Shown: piece after piece, positions 1,108-46,719 of the stretch
Position numbering within the stretch: position 1 is the stretch's first letter
Layout of the letters: the number at the start of each line of letters is the position of its first letter
NCBI GenBank assembly: GCA_964016885.1
Contig: OZ024761.1
Location: 26,164,001 to 26,228,000, forward strand
DNA: 64,000 nt
From: Eledone cirrhosa
Taxonomy: Eukaryota
Direction: 5' to 3'
Position numbers and translations under genes: made by a program
The notes under the pieces: generated by a model
Databases searched by the model: none
What the model was told of the DNA's origin: nothing
The model's input: the letters and a program-made list of their open reading frames with translations, nothing else

Positions 1108-1155
1108 CTTTTGAAAAGCAGAAGAACTGCGAAACCGGTAAAGGAACCAAATAAA
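1108..1155 (+). ncRNA. Degenerate minimal hammerhead-like motif (Penelope-like terminus relic)
   Basis: CTT-TTGAAAA-GCAG-aagaa-CTGC-GAAA-CCGG-TA-AAG, then AATAAA. Stems I/II/III pair, but the core has two mismatches to CTGANGA. Confidence 0.5.
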
Positions 1156-1296
1156 TATATATATATTTTTTTAAATAAGACTCCAGTTGCATTTTCGATT
1201 TCATCTTTTTTTCTTTATAATTTCACTCGTGTAGGACACCTCGGTTATTTTTCATTTCGTAAAAAAAACCTCCCTTTCTAATATATATATATATCC

Positions 1297-1420
1297 CGGA
1301 TTCAATCAGGAATAACCACAGTAAGTAAGGTACTCAATACATAGTAGAGTATAAATATTTAATCATCCGGAAAGACCTCGTGATTTCCTTCGAATAAACA
1401 GTTCTATTCCTCTAGAAGCT
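1297..1420. mobile_element. Short repeat (family P2), probable Penelope-like terminal fragment in (TA)n
   Basis: 1300-1360 is the reverse complement of ~15870-15935, while 1385-1418 matches 15824-15860 directly. Flanked by (TA)n. Confidence 0.55.
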
Positions 1421-1904
1421 ATATATATATATATATATATATATATATTTATATATTTGGAAATTTAGTAAAATCGAATCTCTGGCGGTTTGCAAGTAAA
1501 TTCGGCCTACTTATATGAAATGATGAGTTAGCAAAGCACTCGATAAGGTAGGGCCTTAGAGTAATAACATACGTTTAAATAGCTTGACAAATCGAACATT
1601 GTGGTAGGCAAATCTAACACACAATACAATACCAAAGTAACGATAGAACTAACAGGTTGAGAAAAATACACCTGGACAAATCAAACGATTAATCGTTCAA
1701 AGTGTTTCTTTGAATCCGAAATCAAATATCAGACTTACGTGACTGGCAAGCTCGTGGTATTCATGATCGAACAGAGGATTCAGTTTTTCAACAGGATTTT
1801 CGTTCTACCCAGAACTGGGGTGATGGGCTAAATGTTGCTGCTAAATGCGGCGTATCGTATCTATAGCTGTCACGTTAATTCTAGCATATATATATATATA
1901 TGGT

Positions 1905-2190
1905 GGAGGCACGTGGCTTAGTGGTAAGGGTGTTGAACTTACGATCATAATGTCGTGGGTTCGATTCCTGGATTGCGTGTTGTGTTCTTGAGCAAAACAC
2001 TTCATTTGACGTTACTCCAATATACTCAGCTGAAAATGAGTACCAGCAATAGCTGGAGGTTTAACCCTGCGATGGACTGGCGTCCTGTCCAGGGAGGAGT
2101 CTTGTACTCTCAGTCGCTTCACGCCATGAAACCGGGATACGCACCGGCCAAATGAGCCTTCTGGCTTAAGACAGACTTTAGACTTTTAGA
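1905..2190 (+). mobile_element. tRNA-derived SINE family A, full length
   Basis: A box TGGCTTAGTGG, B box GGTTCGATTCC, body TGTGTTCTTGAGCAAAACACTT...CCCTGCGATGGACTGGCGTCCTGTCCAGGG, GACTTTA-repeat tail. Closely similar to 44501-44783. Confidence 0.9.
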
Positions 2191-2234
2191 TATATATTAT
2201 TTTTTTCACACACACACATTTATATATATATATC

Positions 2235-2490
2235 TAGGGAGTGTAACTTGGAGTTACTGTAGGTTCACCCGGGTGAGCACTCGATTAGGTTCACTTCTGT
2301 GTTGAGGTGTAGAGCTATATAGAGTGTAATATATTAAAAGGATAACAAGGACGATTGGTTACTCCTTCATTACATTTATTGGTAGGTGACGCGCGTTTCG
2401 CCACTGATCAGCTCAAGATTCGATCTGTATCGATCTTACCCGACTCTATAATCGGCAGCTCGACTGACCCTTTAAGATGCTAGTAGAAAA
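2235..2490 (-). mobile_element. Penelope-like terminal fragment (family P3) with decayed long-stem-II hammerhead at 2385-2469
   Basis: Minus strand reads GGT-CAGTCGA-GCTGCCGAT...ATCAGTGGC-GAAA-CGCGCG-TC-ACC, then AATAAA. Homologous to 5292-5665. Flanked by (TA)n. Confidence 0.65.
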
Positions 2491-42380: not shown

Positions 42381-42387
42381 ATCTCAG

Positions 42388-42446
42388 GTCTGCCCAGGTC
42401 AACGTGACCTATAGGATCAGTGCTGTTCCAATTGTGAACATTCCCG
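42388..42446 (+). CDS. Candidate internal exon (phase 2 to 1), unknown product
   Basis: ttttatctcAG acceptor, only open frame SAQVNVTYRISAVPIVNIP, weak donor GTTTAA. Confidence 0.18.
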
Positions 42447-43064
42447 GTTTAATTTCTGATCCATTGAACATATATGCTTGGAATTATCCAGCGTGTCTGT
42501 GTGTGTGTTCTGTGTGTGTGTTTCTGTGTGTACATGTGTATTTCTGCGCGCGCGCGTGTGTGTGTGTGTGTGTGTCTTTCTGTGTGGGAATGTCTTTCTG
42601 TATGTGAATGCGGGGATGTGTCTTTCTGTGTGTGTTTGTGTGTGTGCGTCTTTCTGTGTGTACATGTGTATTTCTGCGTGTGTGTGTGTCATCTACGTGT
42701 GTGTGTGTGTCTTTCTATGTGTGCATGTCTTTCTGTATGTGCGCGTATGTCTTTCTGTGTCGGTGTGTATGTGTCTACCTTTCTATGTGTGTGTGTGTGT
42801 GTCTTTTTATGTGTGTGCGTGTGTATATGCCTGAGTGTGTATATCTGTGTGTGTGTTTGTGTCTTTTTTATGTGTGTGCGTGTGTATATGTATGAGTGTG
42901 TATATCTCTGTGTGGGTATGTGTGTATGAGTGTGCATGTCTGTGTATATATTAGTGTGTATGTCTGTGTATGAGTGTGTATGCCTGTGTATTCCGGATTG
43001 TGTAAGACTGTGTATGTGTCTGCGTGTGTATCTTTCTATGTGTGTGTGTCACATTATATTCAAC

Positions 43065-43430
43065 AGGGGCGATAACGGTAATTCTCTCTGAAGAAGGGGC
43101 AGCCTACGCCAGATTATAACAGGACCTAGAAACGCCGTATGTCAAGATGGCGCCTTTATGAATCCCTCTGGATTTACAGGACCATGGTTTCAACGTTGCT
43201 GACGATGGCAGAATTGAAACACCAAGGAAATTAACAAACAGGAAGATCTACGAGGGATCACAGTATATAGAAGAGGTGCGATACCAGTAATTTTATCTGG
43301 AAAAGGGATTAGCTCCGGCAGAGATTTTTTTTTAAATCCCTTGAAACGCCATATGACAATATGGCGTCCATAAGAATCCTTCAGAAGTTACAGGATTATG
43401 CATGTATTGTATGTTGGTGATGGCGAATAA
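43065..43430 (+). mobile_element. Penelope-like relic with diverged ~55-bp direct repeat and hammerhead-like motif
   Basis: CTGAAGA-AGG...CCT-A-GAAA-CGCCG-TA at ~43088-43139. 43124-43180 is repeated at 43339-43395. Confidence 0.5.
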
Positions 43431-44500
43431 AATGTAAATATATATACACATATACACACGCAGACATACACACACACACACACACACATACATACATATA
43501 CATATATATATACATATATATATATACATATATATACATATATATATATATATGTATACATATATATATATACATACATATATATATATATATATATATA
43601 TATATATATATATATACATATATATACATATATATATACATATATGTACATATATATATATATACATATATATATACATATATATATACATATATATATA
43701 ACATATATATACATATATATATATACATATATATATAACATATATATACATATATATATATACATATATATATACATATATATACATATATATATATACA
43801 TATATATACATATATATATATATACATATATATATACATATATATACATATATATATATACATATATATACATATATATATATACACATATATATATATA
43901 TATATACATATATATATACATATATAAATACATATATATACATATATATATTTACATATATATATACATATATATATATATATATATATATAGATGACAG
44001 TTTAACGTGAAATCGCCTTATCTGTAAGAGGCGCTATAACGCTAATTCTTGTCGACTCTTTCAACGTATGTTAACGCCATTATTAATACGAGATGACAAC
44101 ATCGAAGTCAAAATATAGATCAATAGAAATGATTAAATAATGTTGTTAATCTGATAATTCTATTTAATTATTTCAAATACACGTGTATTCTCACATTTGA
44201 TCTCACCGATATTCTGGAAAGCTGCCAGCAAAACCTAATTGCTGCAACTTAAGCTTATTTCAGGAATTTCGGAGAAGAGCACTTTCATACAATGGACATA
44301 CTTTTAGATTTGTTGGATCTCCGTCGGTTTCGAATATGAGTGTTTTTACTTTTTGAAACACCAAAGCAGTACCACTGTATTCTCGTGAAATTAATGTAAA
44401 TGTACTTAAATACATACAGACAGAGAGGCAGAAATACAGATACACCCATAGACACATACACAAATATAAATGTACGCATACAAACATTCATAAATGCAGT

Positions 44501-44783
44501 GGAGGCACGTGTCTTAGTGGTAAGGGTGTTGGACTTACGATCATAATGCCGTGGGTTCGATTCCTAGGTTGCGTGTTGTGTTCTTGAGCAAAACACTAAA
44601 TTTCACGTTGCTCCAGTATACTCGGCTGAAAATGAGTACCAGCAATAGCTGGGGGTTTAGCCCTGCGATGGACTGGCGTCCTGTCCAGAGGGAGTCTTGT
44701 ACTCTATGTCGCTTCACGCCATTAAACCAGGATAAGCACCGGCCAAATGAGCCTTGTGGCTTAAGACAGACTTTAGACTTAGA
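44501..44783 (+). mobile_element. SINE family A, full length
   Basis: Closely similar to 1905-2190. Confidence 0.9.
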
Positions 44784-46719
44784 TTTATACATGTGAACAT
44801 ATATATAAATATATATGTACATATTTTTTTTAACATGTGTGTGTGTGTGTGTGTGTGTGTGTGTGTGTGTGTGTGTCAACGTTAACCATGTTCTCACTTG
44901 CTACAAACGCGTCTGAAAAACAGTCCTTTTCTTTGAGGTGTGACTTTACAAGTTGATTGGCCTCACAAGGATGGTGCTTTTCTATAATGCTTAACTGTTG
45001 CATATGGATCAGCGAAACGGCGCAGTCGGGACTTTGAAGAAAAAGTAGGTATATGTTTGTCTTTTATTTCCTATTCTTTTGTAATTTGATATATATATAT
45101 ATACATGTGTGTGTCTGTGTGCCTGAACTATACACACACCAGACATCACAAACACACAGAGACACACAGACACACACACAGACACACACACATATATATA
45201 TATATATATATATATATATACATACAGAGAGAGAGAGAGAGAGAGAGAGAGAGAGAGGGAGAGATAGAGAGAGAAACGGATGACTAGACAGTGAATATAT
45301 TCATCTGTGGAATAGCCATCCTCGTACACATTCATTTCACAAGTTGATGATGGTTATATTGATAGAACAAAACAGAACATTGATCATCGGAATCTATCGA
45401 AGACGCATTCTTATTCATAAAGCAACACAGACATGGAAGCCGAAATAACAATAAAAATTTAGATTGAACAAATTCCCTTTTGCACACCGACTTTAAGGAG
45501 CCATGGAGGCTTGGAGCCTTGTGGTCGAAAACGTTAAATTTTCAGTTGCTTCCTTTTGTTTTATTCATTTTCATTTTTCTTTAATTTGATTTTAATACTA
45601 AACCTCTGAAACGTCCAGAGCGGAAACTATTCAATGATTGCTTCCAAGCAGAACATATTATTCCAAATTTATCGCAGTGTTTTATAGAGTCTATAATGTA
45701 TAGTAGTCTAATGTAATTTGTATTGGATTGCAGCATAACAATATTTCTGTATAGACAAAAGGAATATCGTTTTATGTAATACAGACCAGCGTCACGATGA
45801 TCTTAAATATGGCTTTTCCAATACAGTGGATTTGATTTTAATCTATCTATCTGTATATCTATCTATCTATTTATCTATCTAGCTATCTATTTATCTATCT
45901 AGCTATCTATTTTGTAAAATCCCCGGCATGTCTTTGTATTGTCCCCTTTCTTGTTGCGCCCTTGTGGCTAATAAAGAAATCTATCTAGCTATGTGTTTAT
46001 CTATCTATCTATCTATCTATCTATCTATCTATCTATCTATCTACCTGTCTATCAATCTATATCTATATCTATTTGTCTATCTGCCTATCTACCTTCCTAC
46101 ATATCTCTATATCTCTCTCTATATATATCTCTCTCTATCTCTCTCTCACACACACACACACATATATATATATACCTATATAACAATGTAACAATGTATA
46201 TACTTACATACACACATAACTACATATATACATAGACGCATACATACATGCATACATGCATGTATACATAAATACATACATAGCTACGTATATACTTCCA
46301 TACATACATACATACATACGTACATACATACATACATACATACATACATACATACATACATACATACATACATACAAAGATACTGACATACGTACATACA
46401 AACATACAAGCATACGTACATACATATATACCTACATACATGTATATATTACATGTCTCCCAATCGGATAAATTTTTCAAAGGCATTTCTCATTTGTGAT
46501 ATCAAAAAAAGAATTGTTCTCTTAAAGCATTGTTGCGTTGCGAGAAGAAATAAATCAGAGGCAGAAGGGATTCTGATTCCCTTTATATGTTTAAAATATA
46601 GGTTTATAGATCGAGGTCTCAGTGTACTTATTTTGCCATTGGCTCACTTGTGCCTAGCTGAAAGAAAGTACGTCTAAATACACTACAATGTGCTCTTCCG
46701 CCCTCTAAATATATTCTTT

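Follow-up and report, generated by a model that had tools for sequence, protein, structure and literature searches.

Hammerhead-bearing insertions near (TA)n repeats in Eledone cirrhosa: probable 3' ends of truncated Penelope-like elements

Introduction

Minimal hammerhead ribozymes are found in the pseudo-long terminal repeats (pLTRs) of metazoan Penelope-like elements (PLEs), with 2,000-9,000 motifs per genome. These motifs are heterogeneous, mostly single with some opposite-strand pairs, and probably belong to truncated PLEs (Cervera and De la Pena, 2014; PMC4209133). PLE insertions are strongly 5'-truncated, have an adjacent inverted copy and are tailed at one end (Craig et al., 2021; PMC8557442). 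In vitro, a PLE protein nicks AT-rich DNA and uses uncleaved RNA, with two internal start points for reverse transcription on the 3' side of the hammerhead (Frangieh et al., 2024; PMC11167929). A PLE origin has been proposed for retrozymes (PMC7229834 in 2020; Li, Clavereau and Pollet, 2026, bioRxiv 10.64898/2026.07.22.740005), and an octopus repeat annotation comprises 31 recently active Penelope-like families (PMC13282606). The present analysis deals with a stretch of 64,000 nucleotides from Eledone cirrhosa (contig OZ024761.1 of assembly GCA_964016885.1, positions 26,164,001 to 26,228,000 of the forward strand; in the following, the window), in which short insertions with hammerhead motifs lie in or near (TA)n arrays. 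Among the papers listed on hammerhead ribozymes in cephalopods, none is by its title a survey of such motifs, and the families may already be catalogued, e.g. in Repbase or in supplements.

With a probability of about 0.75, short stumps of high copy number carry the motifs as minimal type I hammerheads and represent the 3' pLTR ends of about ten families of 5'-truncated, endonuclease-bearing PLEs. The general picture of hammerheads in truncated PLEs is ordinary and was published in 2014; only the abundance stands out. The families are best explained as unannotated additions to this known class. They share with the minimal hammerheads of Cervera and De la Pena (2014) the type I layout, a short palindromic stem III, an extra nucleotide 5' of stem II and the U3-A8 core variant described there, as well as many unrelated families per genome, a majority of single motifs and opposite-strand pairs. 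By contrast, a density of about one motif per 5-6 kb in the window, taken together with read depth, suggests far more copies than the published number per genome. Furthermore, the cores of one pair (13174 and 13241) are only 67 nt apart, compared to 100-700 bp in the published pairs, and several stems II of the window are long-looped.

Hammerhead motifs exceed the shuffled background

The window is animal-type DNA. Masking of microsatellites and tandem repeats covers 34,987 of its 64,000 bases (55%), and short and long interspersed elements (SINEs and LINEs), the latter as LINE-like stubs, are scattered across it. A strict scan for type I hammerheads with an intact CUGANGA core and three stems yielded 3 matches, compared to a mean of 0.01 and a maximum of 1 in 100 local dinucleotide shuffles. 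A variant-tolerant descriptor admits the U3-A8 variant beside the intact core and permits, but does not require, one more nucleotide on the 5' side of stem II. It was composed after matches had been seen, with published minimal-hammerhead variants as a guide. At a score of at least 10 it found 7 matches versus a mean of 0.09 and a maximum of 2 in 1000 shuffles that left the microsatellites in place, and none of these 1000 shuffles reached 7. The reversed-strand control contained nothing above a score of 7.5, the complemented-strand control one match at 11.5. Because of this match and of the post hoc descriptor, the true background is somewhat above the shuffle value. The seven cores with a score of at least 10 are 13174(-), 13241(+), 26766(+), 14608(+), 14300(-), 1111(+) and 27206(-), and for these strong sites the excess over chance is real.

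When two core mismatches were allowed, 11 matches were obtained versus 7.1 at a score of at least 6 and 5 versus 2.4 at a score of at least 9 (838 shuffles). Since this loose scan is barely above chance at low scores, decayed motifs are not supported by scanning alone. Consequently, they depend on the homology between 2466 and 5545 and among 43088, 43297 and 21020. At gathering thresholds, Rfam gave 0 matches in the window; at E-values up to 10, the 150 matches listed of 755 were all to microRNA families, nearly all on microsatellites or palindromes. Folding of 12 single motifs revealed none that was significantly better than its shuffles (z -0.3 to -1.9).

The original prediction, made from the letters of the window, had described about eleven hammerhead motifs and proposed a comparison with shuffled DNA. 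Run on the window, this comparison upholds the strong sites and leaves the loosely matching ones near background. Among the predicted motifs, five are strong (13174, 13241, 26766, 1111 and 27206), two intermediate (36089 and 36359) and three decayed and backed by homologues (2466, 5545 and 43088), while 45490 lacks a core. The latter and possibly also 36089 may be chance matches. The strong sites 14300 and 14608 had been overlooked. The predicted lack of relationship apart from two pairs is correct for most motifs. When 13 motif regions were compared all against all, the shuffled maximum of 41 was exceeded by two sets only, 2466/5545 and 43088/43297/21020; 13174 and 13241, the two arms of one insertion, make up the third related set. 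By this alignment, the motifs fall into about ten mutually unrelated families. AATAAA, which had been noted after several motifs, is indeed present within 70 nt downstream at 6 of 14 sites, five of them among those predicted originally.

Association with (TA)n

For 9 of the 11 independent motifs, a run of (TA)5 or longer follows within 250 nt on the 3' side, compared to 34% of random unmasked positions (p=0.002); only 14300 and 14608 deviate. Here, pair and tandem were collapsed and 45490 was left out. The 250-nt cut-off was picked after inspection of the sequence; a median test yields p=0.01. In the nine motifs, the distance from core to downstream (TA)n is 39-233 nt, i.e. the hammerhead lies near the 3' end of the insertion. 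SINEs used as a control have (TA)n on their 3' side in 3 of 12 cases. Hence, the expected vicinity to (TA)n holds for the 3' side, and motif-bearing insertions are biased to AT-rich or microsatellite DNA. Reads of other copies have loose ends that enter (TA)n at 14240 (26 contigs) and at 14748, and a few reads connect the 14608 and 13174 families via a TA tract.

Inverted pairs with a one-sided tail

Five head-to-head inverted pairs carry an extra tail on one arm only: 5290-5665, 13030-13325, 5721-5895, 8055-8212 and 18817-19122. Two of them, 13030-13325 and 5290-5665, contain hammerheads; the other three contain partial ones or none. The pair 13030-13325 has the intact cores 13174(-) and 13241(+). 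Its arms are identical at 106 of 114 positions, an extra tail of about 60 nt is confined to the left arm, and (TA)n is found on both sides. At 13034, where the tail ends, 442 molecules terminate in the raw reads at a depth of 576.

The pair 5290-5665 belongs to the same family as the single copy 2233-2490. Its minus arm comprises the tail (5292-5376) and the 3' end (5488-5526), with a SINE piece inserted between them, whereas the plus arm (5527-5665) has a decayed core at 5545, no tail and (TA)n at its end. The tail of the minus arm is the same as that of 2233-2490, with a common end point at 2236/5292. The cores 2466(-) and 5545(+) have two changes each, and the two copies are 80% identical over 125 nt (blastn and alignment). 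In 2233-2490 (minus strand), the decayed core near 2466 has a long stem II with a large loop and is followed by AATAAA and a tail of about 100 nt ending in (TA)n; on the other side, (TA)n cuts the element 24 nt 5' of the core.

The remaining three pairs are all located in (TA)n and have their tail on the right arm. In 5721-5895, the arms are identical at 74 of 77 positions and a central core-like motif lacks stem I. 8055-8212 (60 of 61 identical positions) includes an apparent 3' half of a hammerhead, and related pieces are present at 27450-27524 and 29310-29368. 18817-19122 (104 of 106) has a tail of about 55 nt; it was rejected as a hammerhead, as the core heptamer is present without GAAA. 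Altogether, tails of window copies measure about 35-100 nt. The 5' ends of the window copies lie at varied distances from the core, in six of them between about 7 and 40 nt.

Read depth and longer family forms

Reads were placed at 80% likeness on 13030-15500 of the window in four runs, which covers three of the about ten families. In run X1, depth amounts to 4.2 × 10^5 for the 13174 family, 3.3 × 10^5 for the 14300 family and 1.5 × 10^6 for the 14608 family, compared to 5.5-8 on unique DNA. Thus, these families are at 10^4-10^5 times single-copy depth, an order of magnitude only, because summed depth is no copy number. All three occur too in run X5, which is from another organism.

The depth of the 14608 family drops from 3' to 5', from 1.98 × 10^6 (14678) via 5.9 × 10^4 (14616-14634) to 4.0 × 10^3 (14546). 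Loose ends at 14637 and 14641 represent alternative stem II hairpins of two subfamilies in which the letters differ, and the first step of the drop is in part due to this subfamily divergence. As both hairpins are paired, they suggest that stem II pairing is kept with different letters. In run X4, which has little or no unique-DNA depth, an 853-nt record of the 14608 family (depth 106) runs 747 nt 5' of the window match. Records of 464 nt (depth 379) and 709 nt (depth 5) of the 14300 family run 342 and 628 nt 5'. Since these records continue 5' of the window match, two of the three read-tested families have longer multi-copy forms.

Contigs in two runs link the stretch 14437-14523 to 14263 or 14323; as possible 5' sequence of the 14300 family, it would face the unrelated 14608 family head to head. 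The segment 15451-15500 is the end of another high-copy family (X1 depth 1.6 × 10^5) that enters TA repeats in other copies; no hammerhead was seen in its window copy. At 13380-13690, a mid-copy repeat (X1 depth 1.5 × 10^3 to 1.1 × 10^4) contains a hairpin and a possible decayed core near 13445(-). The 14608 family had 0 matches in a pattern scan of public metagenome and viral contigs. For the 13174 family, one match each in public metagenome and genome contigs was rejected as chance, as only 22-23 nt are in common; one of them sits inside a long bacterial-looking open reading frame (ORF).

Search for PLE coding sequence

The original prediction had seen no coding sequence for a Penelope reverse transcriptase (RT) or GIY-YIG endonuclease, and none was found here by tests that are weak. 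Pfam returned nothing relevant for 39 of 120 stop-free window peptides (one weak unrelated match), for 36 read-through frames from six segments or for 15 frames from three further segments; the read-through scan omitted 1420-7000, 12950-14100, 14800-16460, 18800-22800, 27220-28360 and the minus strand of 200-1420. RT and GIY-YIG motif patterns, searched in all six frames, gave scattered short matches only. A phmmer match of a 71-residue read-through 5' of the 14300 motif was rejected because it concerns a single repetitive protein and is the sum of 8 weak stretches. In addition, an ORF of endonuclease-bearing PLEs, which lies 5' of the pLTR and combines a telomerase-like RT with a GIY-YIG endonuclease, would not fit into the short window copies. 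The 3' coding stubs at 4229-4650(-), 15545-15730(+), 26520-26620(+) and 57230-57620(+) resemble RTE- or CR1-type LINEs. As Pfam was also silent on those of them that were scanned, the power of the coding search is low.

The 209-nt tandem dimer

The region 43047-43437 (plus strand) consists of 1.9 head-to-tail units of 209 nt with one decayed hammerhead each (cores 43088 and 43297), both without stem I. The units are 68% identical (117 identities, 48 mismatches, 7 gaps), and no coding sequence or ORF was found in the dimer. A single, more decayed third copy is located at 20985-21100(+). Tandem units (about 170-400 nt), type I hammerheads in each, the lack of an ORF and a dispersed monomer are features of animal non-LTR retrozymes (PMC7229834; 10.64898/2026.07.22.740005). 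By its layout, the dimer is therefore a retrozyme-like candidate, the sole one remaining in the window. Alternatively, it may have arisen by local duplication or represent an incomplete PLE tandem. Unlike those of retrozymes, its hammerheads are decayed and minimal, and the other nine families are not tandem in the window. Canonical retrozyme hammerheads have a 6-bp stem I, a 4-bp stem II and contacts between loops 1 and 2; the window sites deviate from this in their stems, with 2-8 bp in stem I and 2-10 bp in stem II (descriptor scan).

Further hammerhead sites and repeats of the window

At 1100-1156(+), the core 1111-1117 is the U3-A8 variant (score 10.5) with a 4-bp stem II and a palindromic stem III, followed by AATAAA at 1150 and (TA)n. 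The high-copy copy 14174-14325(-) has its core at 14300 with a 6-bp stem I and a weak stem II (score 11). The copy 14571-14700(+), with the core 14608 and an 8-bp stem I, belongs to the most abundant of the three read-tested families. The intact site 26630-26812(+) reaches a score of 15: core 26766 is combined with a 5-bp stem I and a 6-bp stem II, and (TA)n follows directly. At 27088-27216(-), the core 27206 has a 4-bp stem II, a 2-bp stem I and AATAAA, and (TA)n lies at a distance of 11 nt from the core on the upstream side and of 119 nt on the downstream side. Both 26766 and 27206 have an unpaired nucleotide 5' of stem II. The decayed copy 35925-36100(-) lies between (TA)n tracts; its core 36089 is intact, stem II is long and stem I weak (score 7). 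At 36330-36445(+), the core 36359 is intact with a G at the cleavage position (score 6), and AATAAA and a (TA)n end follow.

The region 45490-45540(+) was rejected as a hammerhead: it has a stem II hairpin, GAAA and a short palindrome, but no recognisable core. Two core heptamers at 41148 and 41171 (+), 23 nt apart and with no GAAA in register, were not scored as hammerheads. The segments 3936-4230(-) and 15165-15446(+) are 77% identical over 222 nt and consist of an AT-rich stretch and a tRNA-like SINE head, the latter joined to an apparent 3' hammerhead half whose stem III is long and palindromic. A high-copy SINE-head/hammerhead chimera was discarded as an explanation, since depth on the head is 8-112 compared to 6.7 × 10^4 on the adjoining bin. 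The window also contains a 103-bp satellite (47751-52327; 44 copies, 92% matches), a GC-rich 27-bp minisatellite (16463-18098; 61 copies) and a local segmental triplication, in which one segment is present three times (27463-28400, 29310-30260 and 32700-33480) with microsatellite expansions between.

Discussion

The prediction that this genome hosts many families of ribozyme-bearing retro-insertions in (TA)n is borne out by the excess in the scan, about ten families, the (TA)n bias and the read evidence. Like endonuclease-bearing PLEs (Penelope/Poseidon, Neptune, Nematis), the insertions combine 5' truncation, an inverted copy, a tail at one end and AT-rich or microsatellite targets. They differ from them in that the window copies lack a coding region and that tails measure about 35-100 nt instead of 30-40. 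As described, Naiads target (TA)n and have no canonical hammerheads; at best, the 18817 pair would match them.

According to published PLE work, the RT/GIY-YIG protein of the element would nick AT-rich DNA, and reverse transcription would begin at fixed sites shortly 3' of the hammerhead. We propose that the hammerhead would be among the first stretches copied and so would survive even extreme 5' truncation. Two start sites would give one arm with and one without a tail, and truncation would leave stumps of 60-400 nt. Most copies would have decayed since insertion and are predicted to be inactive. AT-rich nicking, internal start sites and the use of uncleaved RNA (Frangieh et al., 2024) would account for stumps that keep the whole hammerhead and the sequence past the cleavage site.

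Several observations weigh against an origin from truncated PLEs. None of the families was linked to an RT or GIY-YIG frame by Pfam, motif patterns or phmmer in the window, with weak tests and partial coverage. In the window, 14300 and 14608 are 409 and 911 nt away from a (TA)5 run. The depths give orders of magnitude only, and the drop at 14641 reflects in part subfamily divergence and not pure truncation, given that hammerhead stem variants make up the loose ends at this point. The long X4 records could be long non-autonomous or tandem units, and non-autonomous PLE derivatives would leave similar inverted and tailed ends.

An alternative proposal is that the majority of the families consist of short, non-autonomous retrozyme-like monomers with a hammerhead. 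PLE enzymes would act on their tandem or circular RNA in trans, and no autonomous version with the same sequence would exist. The 209-nt head-to-tail dimer with its hammerhead per unit and no coding sequence would agree with this, as would the missing ORF link for all families. Reported retrozyme units measure 51-972 bp, many of their copies being monomers (bioRxiv 10.64898/2026.07.22.740005), and non-autonomous pLTR-forming PLEs are known (PMC8557442). We nevertheless regard this proposal as unlikely. Just one of about ten families is tandem in the window, and its units are only 68% identical and without stem I. The motifs resemble the minimal PLE type and not the canonical type of retrozymes (PMC7229834), two families have multi-copy forms that are 340-750 nt longer on the 5' side, and the 5' ends of the window copies vary by the distances given above. 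Accordingly, the original suggestion of a non-coding population distinct from truncation products is for the most part unsupported, given the inverted-arm-plus-tail pattern and the longer 5' forms; the 43047-43437 dimer remains a candidate.

An origin from satellite-, SINE-like or LINE-associated ribozyme repeats that gather in (TA)n without PLE enzymes is very improbable. LINE-like stubs and SINEs are plentiful in the window, and a tRNA-like head adjoins a half hammerhead in two copies. However, the SINE control has no 3' (TA)n bias, the tRNA-head composite is found at low depth only, and the combination of inverted arm and one-sided tail has been published for PLEs. Chance matches in AT-rich, self-complementary DNA have hardly any probability left and are refuted for the seven strong sites. 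The high background of the loose scan, the silence of Rfam and the lack of significant folding for any single motif would be expected of them; against them stand the result of the 1000 shuffles and the location of the motifs in families of very high copy number, in which stem II seems to stay paired although its letters differ among relatives. Truncated, endonuclease-bearing PLEs thus remain the favoured source of the motifs. A farther-reaching interpretation is unlikely: the hammerhead load of the genome would be among the heaviest known, and several families would each number 10^4-10^5 copies. Non-autonomous, minimal-hammerhead, (TA)n-targeting retrozyme-like PLE parasites, the 43047-43437 unit among them, would make up a real share of these families and help to build the microsatellite landscape.

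If the depth-based abundance holds, this genome would be a rich source of natural minimal-hammerhead variants. With five one-tailed inverted pairs per 64 kb, it would also be a test bed for the start sites of PLE reverse transcription. If some of the families are non-autonomous, they would form a bridge between PLE pLTRs and retrozymes, the link proposed in 2020 and 2026. On the favoured explanation, short PLE stumps hidden in microsatellites can form a large repeat fraction that is overlooked by protein-based annotation.

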